From positions 4,290,001-4,322,000 of the forward strand of contig OZ245049.1 in assembly GCA_965224465.1 (NCBI GenBank): 32,000 nt of DNA. Reading direction: 5' to 3'. Shown in pieces: positions 1-15,913 of the stretch. This DNA is from Flavobacteriaceae bacterium. GTDB lineage: Bacteria; Bacteroidota; Bacteroidia; Flavobacteriales; Flavobacteriaceae. The position numbers and the translations under genes are program-made. Position 1 is the first letter of the stretch, and each line of letters opens with the position of its first letter. Below the pieces are notes generated by a model. It saw nothing but the letters and a program-made list of their open reading frames with translations, did no database searches and was not told the DNA's origin.

Positions 1-79
1 TAAATTTAATCATAAAGAATGGGTCAGCTTTTTAAGTACTTCAAGTTACCCTGAAGCTAATGAAATATTATCCTTTTGA
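1..79 (+). CDS. 3' end (partial) of an upstream L-family paralog (putative lipoprotein family)
   Basis: Frame 2 reads KFNHKEWVSFLSTSSYPEANEILSF with stop TGA at 77-79. It aligns with the C-terminal reading of the next copy, NKNHKEWINLIGALGYSDDMFYENK (643-720). The stop overlaps the TTG at 76 (TTTTGA). Confidence 0.45.
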   Translation, partial: KFNHKEWVSFLSTSSYPEANEILSF

Positions 80-720
80 AAACACTACTGGAAATCATTT
101 TAATGACAGTTCTGTTACAATCGTGTAACTCACAAGAGAAAAAAGGAAACAAAAACAATGGAACAATGCAGCAACCATTTGATTTAGCAAATCTTACCTT
201 AAATGAAAATATTGATGATATATTGTTAACAACTCATACATCCTTAAATGACACGTTAATAGTGAACGATTACACCTATTTAGGGAATCAAAGGGTAGCA
301 TTTTCTGAAAAGAACTTATTAGTTTTTAATGGAGCACAACTTTTTAATAAGAACGATGAAGTTAAAAGCCAAGTATTGTTTCATTATGGTAAAATAGACA
401 AAGAATTTGGAGCCATTTATAATGAGAAAGATAACATATTGGGTATGTATTAAATAAAAACAGCAACAGAAAGTAAAGCCGATTTACTTTTTAAAGTCAT
501 TAATTATAGAAAATAAAGAGTAAAAAAATATAAATTAGGTACTATTGAAACCCATCATTGGGTAAATAACAATATGTATTTTTATTATATTATGAAAAAA
601 GAAAATTCAAAAAACGTGTTTTTAAACATATTATTTGTCTTTAATAAAAACCACAAAGAATGGATTAATTTAATTGGTGCGTTAGGATATTCTGATGATA
701 TGTTTTATGAAAATAAATAA
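76..720 (+). pseudogene. L-family lipoprotein gene (L1) interrupted by two in-frame TAA codons
   Basis: N-terminus MKTLLEIILMTVLLQSC is a signal peptide with a lipobox Cys. One frame stays open from 76 to 720 except for TAA at 451-453 and 514-516. The sequence after the stops keeps family motifs (ADLLFKVINY, HHWVNNNMYFYY, NHKEW) that align to L2/L3/L4 and to the partial copy at 1-79. The start is TTG where paralogs have ATG AAA. Confidence 0.55.
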
Positions 721-898: not shown

Positions 899-1675
899 AT
901 GAAAGAACCTTATTATATGATTGATTTTAATGCAGGAGCATGCTTATTTGAAATTAGAGTAAACGATCAACCAGTATTAAAAATGAACCTAGAAGGTCAG
1001 GCATCAACAAGAATCCCTATTAATAATGCAATTTTCAATAGTGGAAAACAAGAAGTTTCTGTTAAAATGCTTCCATTGTTAGGGCAAACAAAATTTTCAT
1101 CCAAAGCAGAGCTAAGCTACTCTATAAAGCTGTTTGATACAGTAAATGATTTTCAGTATAAGGAGCAGTATGATGGTTTTGAATCTATGAAAATTGAAAG
1201 TACAACAGCTCTAATAATAACGAATACGTTTTTTTTTAATGCGGAAATTCCATATAAGTTAAAAGATTATTGGAAAGATGGTGGGGAGATAAAAGACATT
1301 GAGGATTATGAAAAAAAAATAAGGAGAGCATATTTAGGGATAATAAACTTAATTAAAGGAGAGCAATTTGATTTGTTTTCTAAAAAGATATCTGATAGAG
1401 AATATAACATAGCTACTTCAATGTACCTTTCTTCAAATGAGTCAAATAGGAGGATTCAGGGTTTAATTAATGATTTAAATAGCGGATATGACTATCTTCT
1501 ATTTGAGGAAGAGTTTGCAATACCTGTTATTTCATCTTACGGAAAAAAAATAGCGTTGAAGAAAATAGACGGAGATCCGGCTTTAGGTTTTGGAAATAAA
1601 GAGAAAAGAGAGCAGCTTCTGTTAGATATAGAGTTTTATTTTAATAAAACAACCAATTCATTTGAAATTATATAA
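899..1675 (+). CDS. A-family protein A1 (uncharacterised, no signal peptide)
   Basis: 258-aa ORF with an ATG start. It aligns end to end with 4340-5110 and 6785-7558. Shared motifs are PYYMIDF..A.C.FEIR.ND, IPIN, E.PY.LK.W, ATSMYLS and a C-terminus ending FE(I/V)I. Confidence 0.75.
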   Translation: MKEPYYMIDFNAGACLFEIRVNDQPVLKMNLEGQASTRIPINNAIFNSGKQEVSVKMLPLLGQTKFSSKAELSYSIKLFDTVNDFQYKEQYDGFESMKIESTTALIITNTFFFNAEIPYKLKDYWKDGGEIKDIEDYEKKIRRAYLGIINLIKGEQFDLFSKKISDREYNIATSMYLSSNESNRRIQGLINDLNSGYDYLLFEEEFAIPVISSYGKKIALKKIDGDPALGFGNKEKREQLLLDIEFYFNKTTNSFEII

Positions 1676-1776
1676 AAGCTGTTCTATCCGAATGGTACTG
1701 TAAAATTAATGTTTTTCTGTTAGTTCGAGTCATTACCTTATCTACCCACAGTTAGTTTAAGTGGACATTATCATTT

Positions 1777-2880
1777 TTGCTTAACCTTACCAACGATTTA
1801 AGTGTTAAATGGCAAAATTTGGATGCTCATGAACATAAAAAACTTCAAAAAAGAGCTGGTAAAATTGGGGCTGAAAAGCGTTGGAAACAAAAGGATGCTA
1901 CTTTTGGATATAGCCTAAAAAGTGAATGGGATAAAAATAGTGCTGGTAAATTTAATAAAGAAAGAGAGTTAAAAGCAGAATATGAAACAAAGTTTAAAAA
2001 ACTTTATGAGATGTTTTCTTCTATTAGTGCCCTGTCCGAAGGTATTACTAGTAAAACAAAAGGGAAAGTACGTTCTACGCCACTAAAAGGTATTCCTGTA
2101 AGTTTTGCTATAAAACCACCTAACTTATCGCTTAGCGGTCAATGGAATTTGGAAAGAGCAAATAATAACAAATTAGGAACTAAAGGTGTTATTGAGTTTA
2201 ATGCAAAACCATTAATAGGTTTAGAAATAACTATTGATTTATTGGGCGCTATTGTTTTTGTTGCTAGCTCTATAGTTGGTGCTAGTTTAGGAGTTGTAGA
2301 ATTATATAAAGAAATTAAAGGAAAGCTTGGAGAAGGTATTGATCTTGGGAATGATAAGGTTGGTGTAAAAGCTAATCTTGACATTTTTATGGATTTAATT
2401 ATATCCAATACTATTAATGTAAAAGCGAAGATTGAATTTAACACAGCAGAATCCGCTAAAGATTCTGACTTTAAAATAGAAGCAGATAGCAAGTTAAAGG
2501 TAGAGTTAAAAGTAGGTGTTATTATAAAAGGAGAAATAGTTATATTAGTAGTTAAGGCAGAAGCTTGTTTTGAAGCTTCTGCAGCAGGAGAAGCGTCTAT
2601 AACATTTGGCCATGGTATTATCTATGATGATAAAGGGCTGTATTACAAACCTAAACTAGGATTTGATGGCTTACATGCCAAATATATTATTCAAGTAAGT
2701 GCTGGTTTAGCTATAAAAATCGCAAAAGATAAAAGTAAAATCAACATAAAACATGGGGGTAAACATACTTTTGCAGAAGGTGATTTTCCAGATGTAATCC
2801 CTTCTTTTGATGTAATTAAAGAACTAGAGGGATATTTTGGTTTTAGTGCTAATATTCCTTTAATCAGTAATAAAAAATAG
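1777..2880 (+). CDS. B-family protein B1: toxin-like, hydrophobic Gly/Ala segment plus amphipathic beta-rich C-terminal domain; possibly an orphan (start-less) cassette
   Basis: 367-codon ORF, paralogous to 5221-6043. The only candidate start is TTG at 1777, and the first in-frame ATG is at codon 79. The frame opens right after TAG at 1753-1755, and homology with B2 begins at 1759, upstream of the TTG. The stop lies 4 nt before the lipoprotein gene L2. Confidence 0.6.
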   Translation: MLNLTNDLSVKWQNLDAHEHKKLQKRAGKIGAEKRWKQKDATFGYSLKSEWDKNSAGKFNKERELKAEYETKFKKLYEMFSSISALSEGITSKTKGKVRSTPLKGIPVSFAIKPPNLSLSGQWNLERANNNKLGTKGVIEFNAKPLIGLEITIDLLGAIVFVASSIVGASLGVVELYKEIKGKLGEGIDLGNDKVGVKANLDIFMDLIISNTINVKAKIEFNTAESAKDSDFKIEADSKLKVELKVGVIIKGEIVILVVKAEACFEASAAGEASITFGHGIIYDDKGLYYKPKLGFDGLHAKYIIQVSAGLAIKIAKDKSKINIKHGGKHTFAEGDFPDVIPSFDVIKELEGYFGFSANIPLISNKK

Positions 2881-2884
2881 AAAC

Positions 2885-3559
2885 ATGAAAGTGATAACGA
2901 CCATAATGATATTAATTATATTAACTTCATGTAACTCTAAGATGAATATAGAGGAATTTGAATTTGACAGGGGAATTCCAATTCAAATCGATGGATTAAA
3001 CAAGGAGTACAGTGTATATGTACCATGGCCTAGTTTGTATAGGCTGAAAAATATAAGTAAGTTTAAATACAATACAATAAAATTTAAAAATGAAAGTATT
3101 GAGTTTAAAGATGAATTATATATCAGAAAGAACAAATTGCTCTTGATTGTAGATTCGTTTGAAATGAATAATTATATAGGATTTGAACTTTCTTTGATTA
3201 ATGAAAAAACAAGTAATGATTTTTTAAATTTGTTTAACAAAAAGTATAAAACTCCATTTAAAAAAAGTGAATATGTAAAAGACAAATATAAGCGTATAAA
3301 ATATTTGTGGATAGATACATTATCTAATAAAATGATCTATTATTATAAGCGTAATGAGTCTGGTCATAAGAATTTTAAAACTGGAGAAAAACAAACTTTA
3401 AGTGAAACTAAAATTATCATACTAAAATTAGGTTTAATAGCTGAGATCGATTCTGATGACAAAAGGAATGATCCAGAAAATTCAAGAAAAATTTTAAAAC
3501 AAAAGCCTAATGCTTTTGATTTGTTAGAAATTTTTAAAAATGAATTTCCTGAAGAGTGA
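2885..3559 (+). CDS. L-family lipoprotein L2 (candidate immunity-type partner of B1)
   Basis: MKVITTIMILIILTSCNS is a signal peptide with a lipobox. The ATG lies 4 nt after the B1 stop (TAGAAACATG). Paralogous to 3615-4300 and more distantly to L1 and L4 (motifs IGF.L.LIN....DFL.LFNKKY.TP and YLW....MIYYY). Confidence 0.75.
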   Translation: MKVITTIMILIILTSCNSKMNIEEFEFDRGIPIQIDGLNKEYSVYVPWPSLYRLKNISKFKYNTIKFKNESIEFKDELYIRKNKLLLIVDSFEMNNYIGFELSLINEKTSNDFLNLFNKKYKTPFKKSEYVKDKYKRIKYLWIDTLSNKMIYYYKRNESGHKNFKTGEKQTLSETKIIILKLGLIAEIDSDDKRNDPENSRKILKQKPNAFDLLEIFKNEFPEE

Positions 3560-3614: not shown

Positions 3615-4300
3615 ATGAAATTACTTATTCAATTAGTATCAATACTGCTAATAATTATTTCTATAACATCATGTCAAGAAAAAATTGATATTAAAAAATT
3701 AAAATTTGATACTGCCAGTAAAAACCGAAAAATTAATTAAAGATTATAACCTAACTATTCCCTTAAAAGATATTTATAATGTTAGTGATATAGGAAATTA
3801 CCATTATGGAGATATTGAGTTAAAAAAAGAAAGTATTACGTTTAAAGGGGAAAGTAATGTTTACAAGAATGAACTTAGTTTAATTGTGGACTCTTATGAG
3901 ACTAAAAAATATGTAGGTTTTTATCTAGAAATTATTAATGAGGAAATAAGTGATGAATTCTTGTTGTACTTTAACACTACTTATGGTAGTCCATTAAAAA
4001 AGTATGAAAATATTAAATGGAACTATAAAGACCAGATATATATGGAATGCTGAAAAAGGTAATCAGTTTATCTTTTATGATAAACATAATGAAGAACACA
4101 AGAACATAAAAACAGGTAAAGTGCAAGTTTTTAGCAGTACAAAAATTATAATTTTAAAGCATGGTCTTAAATTTGACGATAGAAATCCTTTTCATAGAAA
4201 AGGAGATAAAGAAAAGCTTGAAGTGTATTTTAAAGAAAACCCAGAGTATGCATATCTTTTTCATATTTTCAAAAACAAAGTTTTAGACCCTATAGATTAA
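3615..4300 (+). pseudogene. L-family lipoprotein L3, tandem duplicate of L2 broken by two frameshifts
   Basis: ATG at 3615 gives MKLLIQLVSILLIIISITSCQEKIDIKKLKFD, then a stop at 3738-3740. Homology to L2 continues in the next frame (ORF 3706-4053) and again in the third frame (ORF 4004-4300). The frame changes fall near 3708-3712 and 4025-4035. Confidence 0.7.
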
Positions 4301-4339: not shown

Positions 4340-5110
4340 ATGAAAAAAACATTTTACGAAGCTGATTGTAGTGCCTTAAATTGCTTGCTTCAAATTAGAA
4401 TAAATGATGTAGAGGTGTTTACTGCTCCTATTGATGGTCAGATGCGAACAGATATCCCTATTAATATGGGAATCCTTGAAAGCGGAGTGCAAGAAATAGA
4501 AGTTAGGGGATTGCCATTATCCAATTCAATAGCGCTAAATGAGAATGCCTATATACGTTATCAGATTAATGACTTTGACCTTAGTACAGGAAGTTATAAG
4601 TTTATAAAACAGTTTAAAAATCATCAAACTGCTCCTGTACAGAAAGGGAGTCCATTAATAGTTCATAAAAGCACATTTCTAGCAGAAGTTCCTTATAAGT
4701 TAGAGGCATGGCAAAAAGGTTTAGATTTAAAGGATGTTGAAAATATTAAAGCCAAACTGAAAATTGCCTACAATAAACTTATTACGCATTTAAAAAAGGG
4801 AGAGTTTGACAATTTACTTAATGCCTTAAAAAAGCGTGAGAAAAATGCTGCTACAGCAATGTATTTATCTGATAGCGAATCTCAAAATAGAATTTCAAAA
4901 TTGATTTTTGACTTTAAATCAGGCTTTAAGGTAATGCCATTGACATCAAACATAAGACTTGAGTATTCTGCTTATGGAAAGTTGGCTTCTTTAATAAGTG
5001 AAGATAATATGTCTGCCTTACGTCTTGAGAATGAAGACACAGAAGAAGAACTTATTTTACCAGTTACCTTTTATATTCCAGAGGGTAAAACTGAATTTGA
5101 GGTTATTTAA
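4340..5110 (+). CDS. A-family protein A2
   Basis: 256-aa ORF with an ATG start. Full-length paralog of A1 and A3, and the most divergent of the three. Confidence 0.75.
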   Translation: MKKTFYEADCSALNCLLQIRINDVEVFTAPIDGQMRTDIPINMGILESGVQEIEVRGLPLSNSIALNENAYIRYQINDFDLSTGSYKFIKQFKNHQTAPVQKGSPLIVHKSTFLAEVPYKLEAWQKGLDLKDVENIKAKLKIAYNKLITHLKKGEFDNLLNALKKREKNAATAMYLSDSESQNRISKLIFDFKSGFKVMPLTSNIRLEYSAYGKLASLISEDNMSALRLENEDTEEELILPVTFYIPEGKTEFEVI

Positions 5111-5220
5111 TGTTTTAACGAAGACGAAAAGTTGGTTTATTACATAACATATACATAGTTGTCGTTATTTTTTTAATCCTCATACCCCTACGGTAGTTGT
5201 AAAAGCATATCCTGATATTA

Positions 5221-6043
5221 AGTGGACATTATCATTTTTTCTTAACCTTACCAACGATTTAAGTGTTAAATGGAGTGACCAACCGGTATCAAAGCATAAA
5301 GAATTACAAAAAAGAGCGGGTAAAATTGGGGATGAAAAGCGTTGGGAACAAAAGTCGATATCTCATTTAATGCGAAACCGCTTATTGGTATGGAGATGAC
5401 CATAGATTTACTTTGCCTTGAGGTTGGCGCAGTTGCGGGAGCCATAACAGCTGGTGGTGGCTCTCAACCAGCAATGAGGTTGTATAAAGTCATCAAAGGT
5501 AAAATTAATACAGGCATTGAAGTTGGAAATGAGAATTTAGGCGCAAGTATAAAAGCCGATGTATTTATAGATTTGGTTATTTCTAGTACCATAAAAACAA
5601 CAATTGGTTTTGAGTTTAATACTGCAGGAAAAGCAAAAGACTCTAAATTTAGATTAGAAGCGACTAATACGCTAAAAATAGAAATAAAGGCGGGTTTATG
5701 GATTAAGGCAGAGATAGCTTTAGTTATTGTAAAACTTGATGGGTATTTTGAAATGAGCGCAAAAGGCACTGCAGCTGTTACTTTTGGTCATGGTATTAAT
5801 TATGATGACAAAGGACTCTATTATAAGCCTAAATTAGGGTTTGATGGTGTTACTGCCGAATATGTTATAAAAGGTAAGGTAGGACTATCTTCTACTAAAA
5901 AAGTACTAGGAGGCACACCAAGTAGTGATGATATGATTGTTTTAGATAGTGGATATAAAGAACTTGTAAAGCCTTTTGATGTGATTAAAAGTTTAGAGGA
6001 ACTTTTTGAATTTGATGCTAATATACCATTAATTAAAAATTAG
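5221..6043 (+). pseudogene. B-family copy B2: conserved 5' box fused out of frame to the C-terminal domain after an internal deletion
   Basis: 5221-5354 matches B1 1759-1893 and reads KWTLSFFLNLTNDLSVKW...KRAGKIGDEKRWEQK, with no start codon after the TAA at 5200-5202. That frame then terminates at about 5397. The C-terminal domain homologous to B1 residues ~134-367 lies in a different frame (ORF 5342-6043). About 292 nt of B1-equivalent sequence is missing. Confidence 0.65.
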
Positions 6044-6047
6044 AAAA

Positions 6048-6773
6048 ATGAAAATTAAATACCTAATACTAATGTTGTCTGTTACTTTAATGAATTGTAA
6101 TTCGGAAAAAAAAATTGACTTACTATCATTAACATTAAAAGAAGATTTTTTAAAATCAATTGTTGCAAAAAAAGATAGATCTAAATTTAATCTGGATAAA
6201 ATTCATCCATCAACAGGTTTGCCTCTTCTACAAACTACAAATATTAATTGGTTTAAATTCGGTAATACTGAATTGAAACATAATCCTTATGATGGCTCTA
6301 TACAATCCATAGGGTTTTATTTAGAGAAAGCATATAATACAAAAGATAGTTTGTTTACTATAGCAGGATACAGTATAACTATACCTCAAGATGATGAAGT
6401 GTTTAAGGCTTTAAAAAACAAATATGGTACTCCTAAGGAAATAAGTCCAAAGCCAGTAATAAAAGAAACATTGGCGGAAAGACGAGGGAGACTTGGATTA
6501 AAGAATGAAGGCATGCCAAAGAGAACAGCAAAAGATAGTTTACTAGATGGTTTTCATTCTTTTTTATGGAAGTTTAAAGATATTACAATAATCTATTGTG
6601 AATCGTACAATCCGCGTAAAAGGTATGTTGATTTGGACGGGAACCCTATCCAAAATAAGAAGTGGGAGCAAAAAATAACATCATCAGTTTATATTGTAAG
6701 AAATACGCCTATGGATTTAACAAATTCTGGGAAAACTGCTGCTGAAAGACTTATTCAAATATTCACACCTTAA
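6048..6773 (+). CDS. L-family lipoprotein L4 (candidate immunity-type partner of B2)
   Basis: MKIKYLILMLSVTLMNCNS is a signal peptide with a lipobox. The ATG lies 4 nt after the B2 stop (TAGAAAAATG). Distant L-family motifs are present (DLLSLTLKEDF, GYSITIP.DDEVFKALKNKYGTP, FLWKFKDITIIYC). Confidence 0.7.
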   Translation: MKIKYLILMLSVTLMNCNSEKKIDLLSLTLKEDFLKSIVAKKDRSKFNLDKIHPSTGLPLLQTTNINWFKFGNTELKHNPYDGSIQSIGFYLEKAYNTKDSLFTIAGYSITIPQDDEVFKALKNKYGTPKEISPKPVIKETLAERRGRLGLKNEGMPKRTAKDSLLDGFHSFLWKFKDITIIYCESYNPRKRYVDLDGNPIQNKKWEQKITSSVYIVRNTPMDLTNSGKTAAERLIQIFTP

Positions 6774-6784
6774 AAGTAAAATTT

Positions 6785-7558
6785 ATGAGTATTAAACCAT
6801 ATTATATGATAGATTTTAGTGCGTCGGCATGTATGTTTGAAATTCGCATTAATGACTATCCAGTTATCACGCAAAATATTGAAGGACAAGTGTCAACTTA
6901 TATCCCTATCAATTACGCAGTATTAGAAAGTGGCGAACAAGTTGTTTCTGCTACTATGCTACCATTACTTGGAGAAACTACCATACATCCAAAAGCAAAT
7001 TTAAGGTTTAAGATTATGCTTTTTGATGTTACGAACGATTTTGTGTATCAAGAGCAATTTAAAGAATATCAATCTGTAATAGATTTTAATAAAAAACTTC
7101 CAGTTCTAAAGTATGCAGTTACTTTTATTGCAGAAATACCCTATGTTCTTAAAGCCTGGCAAAACGGGCAAGACTTAAGTAAGATAAAAGAGGTTAGTGA
7201 AAAATTAGTTGTAGCCTATCAATACATTGGTCGTTTAATAAATAATAAAAGATATGATACTTTTAAAGCTATAATTGAGCGTAGGGAAAACAATATGGCA
7301 ACTTCTATGTATTTATCTACACAAGAAACACAGTCAAGAGTTCTAGGGTTAATATCAGATTTTAAGTCAGGATTTAAAGTTATGCCAATATCAAAAGGCG
7401 TTGTTGTGCAAATTTATGGAAATGGAAAAGTGGCAGCATTAAAAAAAATAAATGGAGAGTCAGCTTTATATCTCTATAACGAAGAAACTAAAGAAGAACT
7501 TATGCTAGATATTACCTTTTATATTCCAGAAGGGAAGACTGCATTTGAGGTTATTTAA
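6785..7558 (+). CDS. A-family protein A3
   Basis: 257-aa ORF, 11 nt after L4. Close paralog of A1 (PYYMIDFSASACMFEIRINDYPV) and shares its C-terminus with A2 (FYIPEGKT.FEVI). Confidence 0.75.
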   Translation: MSIKPYYMIDFSASACMFEIRINDYPVITQNIEGQVSTYIPINYAVLESGEQVVSATMLPLLGETTIHPKANLRFKIMLFDVTNDFVYQEQFKEYQSVIDFNKKLPVLKYAVTFIAEIPYVLKAWQNGQDLSKIKEVSEKLVVAYQYIGRLINNKRYDTFKAIIERRENNMATSMYLSTQETQSRVLGLISDFKSGFKVMPISKGVVVQIYGNGKVAALKKINGESALYLYNEETKEELMLDITFYIPEGKTAFEVI

Positions 7559-7613: not shown

Positions 7614-8333
7614 ATGAATAAAAAAACAATTTTTTTACTAGCTATTTTAATCAGTTTGGGGTTAAAATTATCGGCTCAAGAACAAACAAAATATGACATT
7701 AGTACCTTGCTAGGTGGTGTAGGTTTAACTTCTATATTAAGTGACATCAATAATTACACAAAGAATGAAAAGATAGAAAATGATAAAACAATCGTTTTTT
7801 ATAATATCTATGATTCACATTTTCTGTTTTTAGGTAATCCTGTTAAAAATGTAAAAGTAATAGTGAAAGAAGATCGTGTTCGTAAAATAATGTTTATTAT
7901 TGAAGAAAAGACTATTGATGCTCCTCAATTATCTTACTCTAATTTAAGTTATTTGGGTAGTGAAGAAGGAATTGTTGAAGGAGGCATTCCTTCTGGAATG
8001 GCAAATGAAAATTCAACAGCAACGCCAATAACAAATGAAGAGATAGTTGCTCGAGAAAAAATAAGAATCCAAAAAAAAGCAACGAGAAAAAGTATATTTA
8101 TCCAAGTTATTAATCAGAACACCCCCATAACTCATAAAACAAGGATCTTCCTTGACAATAATTACACTTTTGTGTATGGGCAACCATTGTGTCAATTTGA
8201 TTGTTCCGACTTATGGGAATCGAATTACACGAAAATATTCATAGAAAAAAATAATTATTTAGATGAAACAGGAAAGGATACAAAGGTCTTTATCCGTTCG
8301 TCTCTTATAATACAATCTACATTAACAGATTAA
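7614..8333 (+). CDS. Secreted hypothetical protein (signal peptide, no lipobox Cys)
   Basis: MNKKTIFLLAILISLGLKLSAQEQ resembles an SPase I signal. 239-aa ORF with no recognisable domain. Confidence 0.55.
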   Translation: MNKKTIFLLAILISLGLKLSAQEQTKYDISTLLGGVGLTSILSDINNYTKNEKIENDKTIVFYNIYDSHFLFLGNPVKNVKVIVKEDRVRKIMFIIEEKTIDAPQLSYSNLSYLGSEEGIVEGGIPSGMANENSTATPITNEEIVAREKIRIQKKATRKSIFIQVINQNTPITHKTRIFLDNNYTFVYGQPLCQFDCSDLWESNYTKIFIEKNNYLDETGKDTKVFIRSSLIIQSTLTD

Positions 8334-8718: not shown

Positions 8719-10461
8719 TTACAAAGTAAAATCTGAGAAATAGGTAATTATGTTTTTTAGGATATTTCCATTTTTATCATCTTCAAAGTTTTTTGTATGC
8801 TCTTGGGTGTCCATATATTTTAGAGATAGTAAAATTTCGGTTTCAATTTCCGTTTCGAATTTTTTTTCTTGGATGTATTTTTGAATATTTTTTATGAGTA
8901 GATCATTGTTTGTATTATAACCTTCGAGTTGAGTATCGGAACTAATTACCCTTGCCAAATGGATGTTTTTGACCTTTTCTAATAAACCCTTTACGATGTT
9001 AGTTTGTAAATCTGTAAGTTTATATGTTTTTATCATATAAGAAATATTTGGCAGGGCTATGTTTTTATGAATGTCATCGTAGCTGTATTTTTCAAAGAAT
9101 CGTTGTTTCTGCATTTGAAAAGGTAATTCCTTTTTTAATTTTTTGATATAAGATTTGTATTCCTTAATTTTGTTGACAGCTTCTTTATTAGATTTTTTGT
9201 AAAATCTAGGTATTGATAATGTGCTTATTGTCAATAAGATAACTGTTTCGTAATCGTGAGGTCTGTCTCTATGGTATATTTTCTCTGTTATTTTGTTTAA
9301 CATTGTTAGATACAGGAAGTTACTTGCTGTTTTGTTTCTGTAGGACCCTATTTCGTCAATTTTAGTTTCGTTTTTACTTTCAAAATAGTTGGTACATTTT
9401 AGCTTTTTTGGAATGGGTGTGTATGTTATTTCTTGTTTTTCAGATTGTTTATTCGCATCTATTTTATTGTTTATGTTCAATAATGTTAAGTAGCTTTTAC
9501 TCGTTTTTTGTGCTTTTTGAATATAGATCAAGGCATTTTTGTTGTCATTTATCAAATAATATGCGGTGGCTATATTTTCTAACGTCTTTAAATAAACTAC
9601 TCTCTGACGACGTTCCTCTAAGTCTAGGTTTTCGTTATATTCTTTCCATTTATTTATGGAATTCTTAACGTTTTCAATGTCATTATTTTTTATGAATATG
9701 GCAAATTCATTGAGGATGTTATTGTATTTTTTTAATTGTAGTTCTTGTTTTTTCCATTTTTTTATATAATAAAAACGGTAATAATTTTTTTTCTTACGAG
9801 TGTTAAAAGCACTTTTTATATAGCCAACTGCATTTCTTTTTAATTTATATATTTGTACATTATTTACAGGGTCTAAATATTCTGTAGCTACAATTTTTTC
9901 CCCGTTTGCATTCACTGTAAAAATGGAACTTATGGTGGAGCTTGTTACATTTTTAATAATTAGAATACTGTTTTTGGAGGTAGTGTTTGATTTGTATTTA
10001 AAGTTAGTTACATCATCTAAAGCAGAATATTTTAGGTTGGATAGTGGTGACAATTGTATAGATCGTTTAAAAAAGTATCCTTTTCCTCTTTCAGAAATAT
10101 ATTGTGTTGCAGTAATTTGTGATATGATAAGTATTTCTTTTGTTATTTTCCCAGTCCTATCTTTCTTTTCATTGATCTGAATTTCAGGTGCGGTATAATG
10201 GAGTTCTAATTCAGAAACAAAATTGGGATAAGCACGATTTTCACTTAATAAATCATTTTTGAAATCGAATGGATAAAGACCTAGGATGTCATTTATTTGG
10301 ATCTCCCTATCATTGGAAAAATGACTCGTTGCGAAAGTTTTTGGTTCCGTAAACTGAAATAATAGTGCTGGTACGTTAGTTTCAATGGTTATGGTTTTTG
10401 ATCGTGTAGATTGTGAAAAAGCGACATTGCTCATCATAATTAGTAGTAATAATATTCTCAT
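8719..10461 (-). CDS. Large secreted hypothetical protein (580 aa, Lys/Asn/Ile-rich)
   Basis: Long ORF with an N-terminal signal peptide, MRILLLLIMMSNVAFSQS. No domain recognised. One segment (ENIATAYYLINDNKNALIYIQKAQK) looks TPR-like. Confidence 0.6.
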   Translation of the reverse strand: MRILLLLIMMSNVAFSQSTRSKTITIETNVPALLFQFTEPKTFATSHFSNDREIQINDILGLYPFDFKNDLLSENRAYPNFVSELELHYTAPEIQINEKKDRTGKITKEILIISQITATQYISERGKGYFFKRSIQLSPLSNLKYSALDDVTNFKYKSNTTSKNSILIIKNVTSSTISSIFTVNANGEKIVATEYLDPVNNVQIYKLKRNAVGYIKSAFNTRKKKNYYRFYYIKKWKKQELQLKKYNNILNEFAIFIKNNDIENVKNSINKWKEYNENLDLEERRQRVVYLKTLENIATAYYLINDNKNALIYIQKAQKTSKSYLTLLNINNKIDANKQSEKQEITYTPIPKKLKCTNYFESKNETKIDEIGSYRNKTASNFLYLTMLNKITEKIYHRDRPHDYETVILLTISTLSIPRFYKKSNKEAVNKIKEYKSYIKKLKKELPFQMQKQRFFEKYSYDDIHKNIALPNISYMIKTYKLTDLQTNIVKGLLEKVKNIHLARVISSDTQLEGYNTNNDLLIKNIQKYIQEKKFETEIETEILLSLKYMDTQEHTKNFEDDKNGNILKNIITYFSDFTL

Positions 10462-11269
10462 AGTTTTTTTTCGGAAGATAATTAAAAAAACATAAGAGAG
10501 TGTCTGAATTGCTGTTTTTTAAGGTAGATCTATTTGTAAATCAGTAAATTATAGTGTGTTTTTTATTGTTTTAGGAACAGGGGTGAACGGTTTTATGAAA
10601 TATTTGAGGGATATTTTCAAGCTTATATTACTTTTTTTTATGGAGGTAATATGTTCTCCTATTTTTTCAAGATATTAACATGGGCTTAGATTTGAAACAA
10701 TTGGTTACTTTTTGCATTCTTAAATTTTTCCCGCTTGATTATTATTAAAAGATACATGTGATTGCTTTATGATATTGAGAAAAAAGGTGATTGTGTTTTT
10801 CTAATTCAACTGCAGGGTCTTGCTTATCTATTTTTTTATTACAACGGTTACTGGTTGAAAAGTTAATTTTCTCTAATTTCGGATCTCGATTTGAATTTAT
10901 TTTCGAATCTCAATATTTAAGCAATGAGAAACAAAGTTTTGGAATGTTTTTGGATTCTTCTCCTGATGGCTGGGCTATGGATTTCTAATATTTTAATTCT
11001 AAATTTACATTTGCGTTAGGGATAGCAGCGGCATCCTTTTTTGTTTTTTATAAAAAAGATATAGCGGATAGCCCGACCCTTGGGGAACGCCCAAAATTGA
11101 GAGATAGATAGGAGAAATTAGAGTTGAGTATGGATTGCTGTGAAATATACTATTGGAAAAGGAAGGGGTTTACGAATCATAAAATAGGTGCTTTCACAGC
11201 AATACTTACCTCGTAAAAATTTAAAAAGGAACTTGTTTAAAACAGGATAACTGTAAAGGATGCTGTTGC

Positions 11270-11313: not shown

Positions 11314-11707
11314 TAGTGGAGACGCCGGGAATCGAACCCGGGTCCAAACAAGCAGCCAAAAAGCCTTCTACATGCTTAGTTTTTTCTTAATTTTCGACTT
11401 AGAGCTGATTAAAAACAATCCACAAAAAGCTTATTCTCTTAAGTTTCAAAAAATAATCGAGATGCTTACTTTTCTATGTTAACATTTACGATGCCTCTAT
11501 ATTGAACGCCGCTAACCAAGGCTTTCATGAGACATTTAGCTTGCGCACCTAGTGCGCCGAGGCTCATCCTACTGTAATTCGGATTAAGCAGCCAAAGCGT
11601 AGTTATCTTCGCCGTGTAAAAAATTGAAATTGAGATTTACGAGTGCTATTTCATAACTCGACATGCTTACATTTTCTCTGATCTCGCTGTCAAAACCAGT
11701 CGTCCCC
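11314..11707 (-). ncRNA. ssrA: tmRNA (transfer-messenger RNA)
   Basis: The reverse complement starts GGGGACGACTGGTTTTGACAGCG and ends GGACCCGGGTTCGATTCCCGGCGTCTCCA, giving a tRNA-like acceptor and T-arm. The internal tag ORF ggc gaa gat aac tac gct ttg gct gct taa encodes GEDNYALAA (11584-11613 on minus). Length is about 394 nt. Confidence 0.95.
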
Positions 11708-13535: not shown

Positions 13536-14884
13536 TCCCAGTCTATTTTTCTTGAGACATACATAACCATTGCTAAAATTAGAAATAAACCAATACTTCC
13601 AGTCAGTAGTGCATAGTTTTCGAGTTGTATAATAGTAAATATAAAACCGTATAATGCAGTTAGCGATAGCGCAATAAAAAGAGGGAATTTTGTGTTTTTT
13701 AAAATAGATTTTGAGTATAAACTGATAAGTAAAATAGTAGAACTACTTGAAATTAAATAGGCTTTAAAGAAGTTACTGTGCTCAGAAATAGAGATGAGTA
13801 AGGTGTAGAATAAAACCAGTGCCAAACCAATCATGATGTATTGAAAAGGATGGATTTTTATTTTACTAATGGTTTGGATAAGGAAAAACACAAGGAAGGT
13901 GAGTGCAATTACTAAATAACCATATTTTGCTGTTCGTTCGTTTTGTTGGTATTGATTTACCGGTATTTTAAAATTGACACCCATGGCATATTTATTGAGG
14001 TTGGGAATATTTTTATGAAATACCTGAGGGAAAGGGCGGTTTATGTGTAGTACTTTCCATTTTGCATCGAAGCCATCTTTTGTTATTTTATCAGAATTAT
14101 AGGGTAAGAATTCCCCTATAAAATTAGCGGTTTTCCAATTCGATTTTATGTTGAGGAGTGTTTTCTTTCCTATTGGGATGATCCTAAATTGTTCAATTCC
14201 ACTTATATTTAATTGCATGCTAAAAGGTGTGGTATCTTGTTGTAATTTAGGATCCAGTTGTATTTTTTTTGTTTCAAGTGTGTGTAATTTTACATTTCCA
14301 CTAGCCATGTTTTCATCGGAATACTTTGAGATAAAGACGTTGTCTTTGTTTGCTATTTGTATGCTTATTTCGTTTGTAATACCTTTTAAATTGGTGGTTT
14401 TAAATATAAAACTAGCCTCATTCCAACAAATATCATTTTCTGAAATAGAAGCATCGAATTTAAGTTCTCCAAAGCTCCCCGTTATTTTATTGGTTCCTTT
14501 ATAGACGGATGCTTCGTAAATTCCTCTTCTTTTCTCTTTGTTTTTAATTGTACTGTCTACTGTCAGTTCTTTTGGGAAAAAATAATAATATTGTGTATGT
14601 TTATGTTTTTTTATCTGTTTTTCTTTATCTATAGTAATAGTTTCCTCCGTATAATAGTTATAGGGTACTTTTAAAATAGGTCCATATAGTAACACTTCTG
14701 TTCCCCATTTATTGTTGATTTCTTTGACCACTATTTCTTGCCTGTAGGATCTTTCTAGGATTAAACTTTTGATGTAAGAAAGAGGGATAAGGAGAACTAA
14801 AATTAAAAAACCTACAGTTAACATTCTTGCAGATATTGAATTTTTTGCCCAATTTCCAATTTTACTTTTTGTTGTTGATTTCAT
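13532..14884 (-). CDS. creD: Cell envelope integrity protein CreD
   Basis: 450 aa. It has an N-terminal TM helix, a large periplasmic region and a C-terminal cluster of TM helices. The N-terminal LLIPL..I..LI.ER motif is typical of the CreD family. Confidence 0.75.
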   Translation of the reverse strand: MKSTTKSKIGNWAKNSISARMLTVGFLILVLLIPLSYIKSLILERSYRQEIVVKEINNKWGTEVLLYGPILKVPYNYYTEETITIDKEKQIKKHKHTQYYYFFPKELTVDSTIKNKEKRRGIYEASVYKGTNKITGSFGELKFDASISENDICWNEASFIFKTTNLKGITNEISIQIANKDNVFISKYSDENMASGNVKLHTLETKKIQLDPKLQQDTTPFSMQLNISGIEQFRIIPIGKKTLLNIKSNWKTANFIGEFLPYNSDKITKDGFDAKWKVLHINRPFPQVFHKNIPNLNKYAMGVNFKIPVNQYQQNERTAKYGYLVIALTFLVFFLIQTISKIKIHPFQYIMIGLALVLFYTLLISISEHSNFFKAYLISSSSTILLISLYSKSILKNTKFPLFIALSLTALYGFIFTIIQLENYALLTGSIGLFLILAMVMYVSRKIDWE

Positions 14885-14937
14885 TTTTTTTACGAATTAA
14901 AAGTACTTTGAATTTCAAAGTATGTGAATAAATTTTT

Positions 14938-15234
14938 TTATTTAAGTTTTATTAATTTTTCTAAAGCAATGATGTGTTTTCTGAATGCCACAGTTCCTTC
15001 TGTAGTTATCGCATAGCTTGTATTGGGTTTTCTTTCGATAAATTGCTTTCGTACCAATATATAGCTTACTTTTTCTAAAGATTTGATGTGGCTGGCTAAA
15101 TTCCCATCGGTAGCACCTAGGAGTTCTTTAAGTTCGTTAAACGTAATAGATTCATGGACGCTTAATGCGGACATAATTCCTAGTCTAATGCGGTGGTCAA
15201 ATGTTTTATTGATATGTGTAAGTATATTTTTCAA
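14938..15234 (-). CDS. Small winged-helix transcriptional regulator
   Basis: 98 aa. RLGIMSAL....ITFNELKELLGATDGNLASHIKSLEK..Y is a wHTH pattern. Co-directional with creD and the membrane protein upstream. Confidence 0.6.
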   Translation of the reverse strand: MKNILTHINKTFDHRIRLGIMSALSVHESITFNELKELLGATDGNLASHIKSLEKVSYILVRKQFIERKPNTSYAITTEGTVAFRKHIIALEKLIKLK

Positions 15235-15262
15235 ACTATAAGAGTGCTTTTTTTAAATGAAT

Positions 15263-15913
15263 TTACGAAATACGTTGGTCGTATTTAAAGTGCATAAAAG
15301 TACCATAAATTATATGAAAACAGCCAAATCCTACTGCCCAGAAATAGAGTCCGTAACCTATAAATTGAGTAGCTATGAATCCTAGTATGATTACAGAAAT
15401 TCCTAAATAACGGATAGTTCCAATGGTGTACTTGCTAGCGTTAACACAAGATAAGCCGTAAAAAATAAGCGTGCTTGGTGCGATAAGTCCTATCATACCG
15501 TAATCTAAAAGAACAAGGACAAAAAAGCCTCCAGTTGCTAATGGAATTGTGAAATTTATGAGCAATCGTTTGGTGCTGCTATCCCAAATGTTTTCCTGGC
15601 TTTTTTTTGCCTTTTTGACAGTGAGAATAATTCCTGTAATTATAGAGGCGCCCGCAACAATAAGCCCGATGATGAATAAATAATTTTCTAAATACAAATT
15701 TTGTGTATAGCTAAGGAGTTCTTCCGAATTGTAGTGGTTTAGAATTAGGTAATGTGCTATTCCAGCTCCAATCAATGCATAAATTCCTGCTAGGATTCCT
15801 GAGAGTCCACTTAGTGAAATAAACCGTGAAGATTTATTTAAAATCGATTTTATTTCTGAAATATCTTCTAGATAATCTGCTTTTTCCATTCTATAGAGTA
15901 CTTTGAAATGCAA
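15263..15913 (-). CDS. Polytopic membrane protein, unknown function
   Basis: 216-aa ORF with several hydrophobic helices. An alternative start at MEKADYLED (15889) is possible. Confidence 0.55.
   Translation of the reverse strand: MHFKVLYRMEKADYLEDISEIKSILNKSSRFISLSGLSGILAGIYALIGAGIAHYLILNHYNSEELLSYTQNLYLENYLFIIGLIVAGASIITGIILTVKKAKKSQENIWDSSTKRLLINFTIPLATGGFFVLVLLDYGMIGLIAPSTLIFYGLSCVNASKYTIGTIRYLGISVIILGFIATQFIGYGLYFWAVGFGCFHIIYGTFMHFKYDQRIS

Follow-up and report, generated by a model that had tools for sequence, protein, structure and literature searches.

Start-less C-terminal copies of a putative effector gene share a near-identical box at a probable recombination junction in a Flavobacteriaceae module array

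Two gene copies without translation start signals, here called B1 and B2, lie within a 32,000-nt stretch of DNA from a Flavobacteriaceae bacterium (assembly GCA_965224465.1, contig OZ245049.1, positions 4,290,001 to 4,322,000; hereafter the window) and share a near-identical box at the point where their mutual similarity begins. The reading that we favour, with a probability of roughly 0.8, is that B1 and B2 are orphan C-terminal cassettes in an array of modules belonging to an unannotated polymorphic toxin of the type VI secretion system of subtype iii (T6SSiii), and that the box is the junction at which C-terminal parts are exchanged. Each module has the order B-C-A, in which B is the putative effector gene, C a lipoprotein gene that would encode the cognate immunity protein, and A a member of a conserved family of 257-aa proteins.

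Results

A near-identical box in two start-less copies

In a self-comparison of the first 9 kb of the window, the strongest repeat is the pair of boxes (blastn E=1.5e-35), and local alignment of B1 with B2 covers 1757-1893 and 5218-5354. Counted in codon register from the AAG TGG (K-W) codons, the box starts at 1759 in B1 and at 5220 in B2, and it consists of two conserved blocks that enclose a variable stretch (Table 1). The initial annotation had reported two near-identical copies, and both the local alignment and a 30-nt core, AACCTTACCAACGATTTAAGTGTTAAATGG, confirm that they are real: the core occurs exactly twice in the 32-kb window, at 1783-1812 and 5244-5273, and not once across 100 shuffles. 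An exact search of metagenome contigs for the same core returned no matches. The nucleotide identities first given for the blocks, 53 of 54 in block 1 and 45 of 48 in block 2, were reproduced. Some of the detail needed correction, as block 1 of B2 had been placed one position too far downstream (5221-5274 instead of 5220-5273), the divergent stretch between the blocks measures 33 nt, of which 12 match, and not 45 nt, and the final ~9 nt of block 2 in B2 (GAACAAAAG) are part of an internal deletion junction. The identity between the copies has a sharp 5' limit at TTAAGTGG, and the two boxes are direct repeats, not inverted ones.

Some nucleotide similarity between the copies is expected, since no peptides of the family are more conserved than the two encoded by the box, LNLTNDLSVKW and KAGKIGAE(K/R)RWKQK. 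Purifying selection alone was nevertheless ruled out as the cause of the identity by a count of synonymous codons: among codons capable of synonymous change, B1 and B2 use the same one at 15 of 15 positions in block 1 and at 12 of 13 in block 2 (27 of 28 in total). Between genomes, the same codon is used at identical residues in ~49% of cases in block 1 and ~58% in block 2, and the best block 1 match to either box among 68 other copies is 45 of 54 nt. Selection on the protein cannot maintain the identity in any case, because one of the two copies, B2, is a pseudogene. The near-identity, synonymous sites included, is taken to show recent intragenomic exchange or a common origin of short tracts.

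B1 is an intact fragment and B2 a decayed mosaic

B1 is an intact but 5'-truncated copy without a start signal. As described in the initial annotation, its frame opens after TAG 1753-1755, and the TTG at 1777 is TTT in B2. The first in-frame ATG comes only at 2011, and the public annotation (P0001, 367 aa) starts the gene from TTG 1777. Homology to the family begins exactly at the K-W codons of the box. A weak, frame-shifted resemblance noticed by eye raised the possibility of decayed family sequence in the 83 nt before the B1 box, which was dropped when alignment and blastn gave no support. A search of the intervals from each A stop codon to the following box turned up no TAnnTTTG, the promoter motif of Bacteroidetes. 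The 374-codon frame of B1 is uninterrupted in DNA of 29% GC. An alignment of 64 homologues has 72 columns with a conservation of 90% or more, and B1 matches all of them. Such perfect preservation may reflect recent displacement or continued selection.

B2 spans 5148-6043 overall and keeps 24 codons of the constant region before its box, more than B1 does. The TAA at 5200-5202, at first thought to precede its reading frame, is out of frame with the box, whose frame is open from 5148; the in-frame stop before the box is TAA 5145-5147, behind which the frame reads HIHSCRYFFNPHTPTVVVKAYPDI, a peptide with homology to the family. In this remnant, 25 of 26 aa are identical to P0022, a longer paralogue in the same genome, and 73 nt are 89% identical to the B gene of a homologous locus, L060. 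Nor does B2 form one open frame, as had been supposed, since the frame of the box stops at 5399 and the C-terminal homology from 5336 to 6043 is in another frame. At the deletion junction, CGTTGG is followed by GAACAAAAGTCGATATC, and a short near-repeat marks the point where RW(K)QK is joined, in the wrong frame, to GTKVDISF from some 95 codons further on; this junction accounts both for the frameshift and for the apparent K-to-E mismatch in block 2. The same deletion led a global MAFFT alignment of the B regions to skip the box, which local alignment resolved. At the 72 conserved columns B2 presents 3 mismatches, including the invariant A of GAE, and a further 20 columns are deleted. With a frameshifting deletion and substitutions at family-invariant residues, B2 is dead and cannot serve as a cassette.

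The sequence of B2 is also a mosaic, in which a remnant of P0022/L060 type is followed by block 1 as in B1, by a variable patch of its own, of the type found in its own C-terminal clade (QP..KHKEL), and by a B1-like block 2 (QKRAGKIG.EKRW). Three junctions coincide at the K-W codons: the start of family homology in B1, the change from P0022-like to B1-identical sequence in B2, and the point at which P0022 and B2 diverge. This coincidence fits a crossover or conversion within the box during the stacking of modules, an order of events that we infer.

The B family has the genetic context of T6SSiii cargo effectors

A search with B1 translated from 1756 matched 26 proteins, and the long matches (566-631 aa) carry an OmpA domain (PF00691) and reach ~200-270 residues upstream of the box, which is internal in them. 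An exhaustive HMMER search retrieved 129 cluster representatives of the B family at 50% identity. Complete members have ~900-955 aa (typically ~910-950), with homology to B1 setting in near residue 540-575, and comprise an N-terminal domain, an OmpA-like peptidoglycan-binding domain, a conserved linker (PLQYIWP...HSCRYFSN...YPDIKW-LNLTNDLSVKW-...-KAGKIGAE(K/R)RWKQK) and a beta-rich C-terminal domain of ~330 aa, which is presumed to be the toxin. The box is the end of the linker and the most conserved stretch of the family. A near-invariant H-x-H-S-C-R-Y motif (HSCRY[FY]S) precedes the box by ~20-25 aa and is present in B2 at 5148-5170. The pre-toxin modules of other polymorphic toxins are autoproteolytic, as at the DPxGL site of Rhs proteins, and to regard HSCRY[FY]S as a processing site would, by that analogy, be pure speculation.

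Genes for T6SS components accompany the family. A DUF4280 (PAAR-like) gene is present in 63 of the 65 fetched loci, at a median distance of 2.17 kb upstream of the box, and VgrG and Hcp are found in 46 and 30 of the 65, respectively. The B homologue of Chryseobacterium arachidis (L002) has TssD, VgrG and DUF4280 genes upstream, TssD and VgrG just upstream; in this locus and in that of Flavobacterium anhuiense (L001), the B homologue is preceded by a 345-388-aa gene, the DUF4280 gene and a 211-237-aa gene, and the order in L060 is a 386-aa gene, the DUF4280 gene and the 911-aa B gene. Inside the window itself there is no DUF4280, VgrG or Hcp gene, and the linkage is that seen in homologous loci. 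The Bacteroides fragilis effector Bte3 requires the adaptor Ate3 and the DUF4280 PAAR-like protein Pte3 (PMC13402684). It is because of this linkage, together with the Bte3 precedent, that we read the B family as probable T6SSiii cargo effectors.

The order B-C-A holds in essentially all loci, with 0-3 variable lipoprotein genes (C) preceding the conserved 257-aa A gene, which is nearly always the last gene of its module; 140 homologues of A were detected, none of them informatively named. In homologous loci, genes of the C1/A2 type and of the C2/A3 type accompany different B types. Extra, distant A-like paralogues stand in tandem in loci L015, L030, L047 and L053. An AlphaFold2 (AF2) model of B1 is of moderate confidence (predicted local distance difference test, pLDDT, 65) and combines long beta hairpins, their strands 20-28 residues in length, with a hydrophobic helical hairpin at residues 162-193, from which a membrane-active toxin is only a guess. 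The model of A3 (pLDDT 93) predicts a beta-sandwich with a helical bundle, and neither a fold comparison of this model with the PDB nor a sequence-profile search with A produced a match; A may be a second immunity protein or an accessory factor. That B is toxic and that C, perhaps with A, confers immunity is presumed.

The box coincides with a recombination junction across the family

The identities of N-terminal and C-terminal parts were compared separately in 61 full-length genes, with N defined as the 230 aa upstream of the box and C as the part downstream. The correlation between the two is weak (r = 0.44), and either one can be the higher: a Pedobacter and a Chryseobacterium gene have N parts 47% and C parts 90% identical, while the corresponding values are 86% and 36% for two Flavobacterium genes and 93% and 48% for two Chryseobacterium genes. 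As the discordance runs both ways, differences in evolutionary rate are excluded as its cause. Grouping at 70% identity yields 28 combinations of 16 N types with 22 C types. The N types track taxonomy. A single C type is found on 5 N types across two classes, and two N types are each found with 4 C types. At least a dozen separate reassortments are implied overall.

The position of the switch was located with an unconstrained two-segment change-point search, which placed it at -30 to +49 aa of the box start in 250 of 285 discordant pairs; among representative comparisons, 26 of 32 switch in or next to the box by the same interval. Pairs with the same N and different C parts lose identity mostly at +17 to +48, and pairs with the same C and different N parts gain it at -26 to -3, so that the crossover is bracketed within the box. 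Aligned sequences show the switch, as do nucleotide identity profiles, for instance in the comparison of L010 with L036, where identity is mostly 86-100% up to -45 and ~55-75% over the first ~100 nt past the box start. On this evidence, we regard the box as the recombination junction of the B family, comparable to the VENN motif in CdiA. A single contig of an Aequorivita metagenome-assembled genome (MAG) holds two full-length family genes ~24 kb apart (L031 and L053); their C parts belong to different types, and their N parts have 96% identity as far as ~73 aa before the box.

Orphan arrays in other genomes

Copies of B that are truncated at the 5' end and stand directly after an A stop codon were also found in Flavobacterium chungangense (L013), Pedobacter L105 (L040), a Marixanthomonas MAG (L063) and an ENA contig (L067). 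The two orphans of L067 have 209 nt of constant region in common at 91% identity. In L063, the last part of the full-length effector gene, together with its C gene and the beginning of A (1,316 nt, 9322-10637), recurs two modules downstream as an orphan (14172-15487) at 99.7% identity, which would be evidence of recent exchange between main gene and orphan, or possibly of an assembly error, this being a MAG contig. The L040 orphan is split just inside block 1 by open reading frames (ORFs) of 96 and 275 aa (8762-9884), the layout of which suggests an insertion sequence (IS), and an Apibacter copy (L068) is truncated and has a stop codon in its box.

The longer paralogue P0022

The sole longer family member found in the genome is P0022, a protein of 566 aa encoded on the same 5.24-Mb contig. 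Its orthologue in L060 (L060:8366-11101, 911 aa) is 80% identical. Behind it come first a lipoprotein gene, in which the signal-peptide region corresponds to window positions 67-135, and then an A gene with 83% nucleotide identity to A1. This synteny is the ground for placing P0022 immediately upstream, where it very probably ends just before position 1 of the window. Residues 17-566 of P0022 correspond to 352-911 of the L060 protein and residues 9-28 to 38-57; P0022 carries an in-frame internal deletion of ~300 aa, by which the N-terminal domain and half of the OmpA domain are gone. Its block 1 differs from that of B1 at 9 of 18 residues, and P0022 therefore cannot hold a near-identical box. 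With B1 it has no more than block 2 in common (36 nt, judged from the amino acids), and a ~73-nt remnant is common only to P0022 and the dead B2. All three B copies of this genome depart from the canonical 910-950-aa architecture.

Organization of the window

Three B-C-A modules of different types lie head to tail in the first 8.3 kb of the window, in the order C0 and A1, then B1, C1, C1' (a pseudogene) and A2, then B2, C2, A3 and X (Table 1). C0 is probably the immunity gene of the P0022 module. The C0-A1 spacer (454-898) has ~0.45 kb, versus ~1.0 kb with a 331-aa gene in L060, and holds small ORFs only (593-718 and 776-868), which suggests gene loss in module 0. C1' would be an immunity-gene pseudogene inside module 1.

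Table 1. Features of the module array, with coordinates in the window and the basis of each assignment.
Feature	Position	Strand	Basis or remark
C0, lipoprotein-like ORF (lipobox LLQSC)	76..453	+	signal-peptide region (67-135) matches the gene after the P0022 orthologue in L060
A1, 258 aa, A family, last gene of module 0	899..1675	+	83% nt and 77% aa identity to the L060 A gene
Spacer between A1 stop and B1 box	1676..1758	+	no detectable homology to the family or to fetched loci
B1, 374-codon putative orphan C-terminal part of effector	1756..2880	+	intact frame; no ATG before 2011
Box block 1, B1 (KWTLSFLLNLTNDLSVKW)	1759..1812	+	start of both family homology and B2 identity
Variable 33-nt stretch, B1 (QNLDAHEHKKL)	1813..1845	+	type found in C1-type homologues; 12/33 nt as B2
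Box block 2, B1 (QKRAGKIGAEKRWKQK)	1846..1893	+	45/48 nt as B2
C1, lipoprotein, putative cognate immunity gene of B1	2885..3559	+	25-46% identical to the post-B gene in loci with a C1-type match
C1', frameshifted pseudogene of a C1-like lipoprotein gene	3615..4300	+	tblastn matches in three frames, ~41% identical to C1
A2, 256 aa, A family, closes module 1	4340..5110	+	homology
B2, 5' remnant of constant region (HIHSCRYFFNPHTPTVVVKAYPDI)	5148..5219	+	resident P0022/L060 type
Box block 1, B2	5220..5273	+	53/54 nt as B1
Variable 33-nt stretch, B2 (SDQPVSKHKEL)	5274..5306	+	type found in C0-type homologues
Box block 2, B2	5307..5354	+	ends in deletion junction, CGTTGG joined to GAACAAAAG
B2, C-terminal fragment	5336..6043	+	different frame; ~93-99 codons plus or minus 1 nt missing relative to full-length homologues
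C2, lipoprotein, putative cognate immunity gene of B2	6048..6773	+	position and homologous loci
A3, 257 aa, A family, closes module 2	6785..7558	+	AF2 pLDDT 93
X, 239-aa ORF	7614..8333	+	downstream of A in Aequorivita/Aquimarina loci with a B2-type module (L031, L038, L039)

An ORF of 580 aa with a signal-peptide-like N-terminus (8719-10461, minus strand) lies between this effector-immunity island and a transfer-messenger RNA (tmRNA) gene. It was considered as an inverted full-length paralogue, which would imply an inversion shufflon, and found to be unrelated to B. Scans of the island ORFs against Pfam and NCBIfam assigned no family to A, B, C, X or the 580-aa ORF. The tmRNA gene (11314-11707, minus strand) encodes the tag peptide GEDNYALAA, and a Flavo-1 small RNA lies at 11008-11082 (plus strand). 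The island ends ~0.85 kb from the 3' end of ssrA, and tmRNA genes are common integration sites of genomic islands. According to domain scans, none of the ORFs in the window encodes a recombinase, integrase or invertase. Apart from the features above, the window consists of housekeeping genes.

Discussion

The arrangement described above would be explained if modules made up of a C-terminal part with its C and A genes are exchanged by homology-dependent recombination in the conserved linker, crossovers in the box joining lineage-specific N-terminal halves to horizontally exchanged C-terminal halves. Displaced C-terminal parts would stay downstream as silent orphans, and their immunity genes would remain useful. 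B1 and B2 would then have been left behind or stacked when other modules recombined in, each without a delivery half and a start signal, and the near-identity of their boxes could stem from gene conversion or from duplication of the crossover region at module insertion. A crossover between P0022 and B1 would join B1 to the delivery half at the expense of C0, A1 and the C-terminal part now resident there, and unequal exchange between the upstream gene and B1 would produce a duplication. Under this presumed build-up, the present value of the array would lie mainly in its immunity genes, with B1 possibly a reserve cassette.

The initial annotation had viewed the two copies as silent or orphan cassettes that are swapped into an expressed locus. 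The first part of that view is strengthened by the start-less, 5'-truncated copies standing in a module array and by the position of the box between N- and C-terminal parts in 61 homologues. The swapping part fares less well: B2 is unusable, P0022 has no near-identical box, and no recombinant was observed; furthermore, the repeats are direct, and reversible swapping is not expected, because recombination between direct repeats deletes or duplicates.

Several observations weigh against the explanation favoured here. The position assigned to P0022 rests on synteny with L060, and a T6SS in this organism is presumed. With its diverged block 1 and its ~300-aa deletion, P0022 may leave the genome lacking a functional recipient for any cassette. 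The truncation points of orphans vary, from about residue 65 to 289 in the numbering of P0005, so that the box is not their sole 5' boundary; likewise, some breakpoints between N and C parts fall elsewhere, at +93, +160 and -73. The pairs used in the change-point search are not phylogenetically independent, and the conservation of the box blurs the exact position of the crossover. Finally, A, B and C are all without a match in Pfam and NCBIfam, comparison of the B1 model with the PDB yielded no convincing match (TM-score below 0.15), and neither a toxic activity nor a fold nor an immunity function could be assigned.

The most serious competitor is that the two copies are evolutionary debris, that is, pseudogene remnants without a role, with selection acting on the immunity genes and the identity of the boxes dating from one past duplication or conversion. 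We consider this possible but somewhat doubtful. B2 is clearly decayed and C1' is a pseudogene, the deletion in P0022 breaks its OmpA domain, decay is also apparent in the stop codon of the L068 box and the IS-like ORFs that split the L040 orphan, and retention of immunity genes is the main benefit proposed for the orphans of contact-dependent inhibition (CDI) systems (PMC3150448). What such an account leaves unexplained is the uninterrupted frame of B1, in AT-rich DNA and with all 72 highly conserved residues in place, as well as the 1.3-kb L063 orphan that matches the 3' end of a full-length gene at 99.7%, by which arrays do exchange with the main gene. It departs from the cassette explanation only over the present use of B1.

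The cassette explanation can also be carried further, to a linker that is a dedicated pre-toxin junction module of an undescribed polymorphic T6SSiii class and a B1 that is a reserve warhead, re-armed at the box. This extension is tentative, and we think it rather unlikely. As a part of it, the effector class defined by YPDIKW-LNLTNDLSVKW-(variable 11 aa)-KAGKIGAE[KR]RWKQK may span Flavobacteriia, Sphingobacteriia and Chitinophagia. If it were true, re-arming, whether through a deletion or through an unequal exchange involving the upstream gene, would give the strain a new type of toxin and immunity.

A much less probable alternative takes B1 for an independent gene starting at TTG 1777, as the gene caller annotated it, and the box for a conserved N-terminus under purifying selection. 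The intact frame and the retained conserved residues agree with such a gene, but every one of the 61 compared homologues extends in frame at least 230 aa upstream of the box, complete ones reaching ~910-950 aa, and the residue encoded by the proposed start codon, replaced by TTT in B2, varies among homologues (L, F, T, S and others). In addition, no TAnnTTTG promoter motif was found between the A1 stop codon and the box, protein selection does not account for 27 of 28 synonymous codons when B2 is a pseudogene, and without an N-terminal half encoded beside a PAAR-like gene the product would have no apparent delivery route. Least probable of all is that the box is the target of site-specific recombination of the shufflon, invertase or integron type: the sharp 5' boundary of identity at TTAAGTGG and the nearby tmRNA gene might suggest it, yet the repeats are direct, the ORFs of the window lack recombinase, integrase and invertase domains, a 33-nt patch with 12 matches interrupts the identity as would not be expected of a core site, and the family junction is spread over ~50 codons, like a homology-dependent crossover.

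In Proteobacteria, the toxin families CdiA, Rhs and MafB are well known to have orphan cassettes with the same junction as a main gene, and full-text literature searches found no description of such cassettes for T6SSiii effectors of environmental Bacteroidota. The orphans of cdiA-CT have no initiation signals, keep the junction motif, vary in their upstream homology and may be disrupted by IS elements (Poole et al. 2011, PMC3150448). The B family would parallel them (PMC3150448), in that toxin C-terminal fragments and immunity genes are arrayed downstream of a full-length gene, a short junction motif (VENN there, YPDIKW...LNLTNDLSVKW...KIGAE[KR]RWKQK here) is kept along with a variable amount of constant sequence, some copies are IS-disrupted or decayed, and identity between relatives shifts abruptly at the motif. 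The B family differs from CdiA in its presumed route, as a T6SSiii cargo beside a DUF4280 gene instead of a filament of two-partner secretion (TPS). Its proteins lack the VENN motif, Pfam finds nothing in the B copies of the window, the C-terminal parts are all homologous (32-90% identical) where those of CdiA have unrelated folds, and each module has two to three downstream genes, namely the C lipoprotein gene or genes and A.

For rhs-CT orphans, one report describes a silent C-terminal part with an immunity gene downstream of a T6SS-associated toxin gene (Koskiniemi et al. 2014, PMC3967940), and serial passage of Salmonella is reported there to select cells expressing an orphan Rhs toxin. 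The B family is similar in being a putative T6SS-associated toxin, by its context, and in the 1.3-kb copy, 99.7% identical, that the main gene and an orphan have in common in L063. It is dissimilar in that neither P0022 nor the window B copies have an Rhs/YD-repeat domain according to Pfam, and in that the likely main gene is internally deleted. OmpA is the sole Pfam match of P0022 and of the 911-aa L060 protein, and scans of the window B copies with Pfam and NCBIfam revealed no TPS or filamentous haemagglutinin (FHA), YD-repeat or MafB N-terminal domain. The junction motif is also unlike VENN and unlike the PxxxxDPxGL that goes with YD repeats. Neisseria MafB proteins, as Jamet and co-workers are said to have described in 2015, reportedly combine conserved N-terminal with polymorphic C-terminal parts, and promoter-less cassettes with immunity genes are located in the same island; the protein family, the phylum and the secretion route are unrelated to those considered here. 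Similar in gene layout, on which the likeness is based, are the Bte3/Ate3/Pte3 loci (PMC13402684), with a DUF4280 gene and a possible adaptor gene beside the effector gene. The acquired interbacterial defence (AID) islands of Bacteroidales similarly hold immunity genes in excess of effectors, but they consist of immunity genes only, whereas truncated effector fragments with a recombination junction are also kept here.

Set against these systems, the window would add one more case to the known loci with orphan toxin cassettes, this time from a T6SSiii effector family of Bacteroidota that has no annotation. What the present analysis defines is an effector family without a Pfam model, a module that runs from a PAAR-like gene through B and the lipoprotein gene C to A, and a localised junction at which exchange appears to take place across bacterial classes. 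In genome annotation, start-less fragments of B should not be called as genes from a TTG. The family may also be of use for predicting types of antagonism at the strain level and for testing whether silent cassettes can be re-armed. For this window the meaning is more modest: one intact and one dead orphan would lie beside immunity genes that are probably kept by selection.

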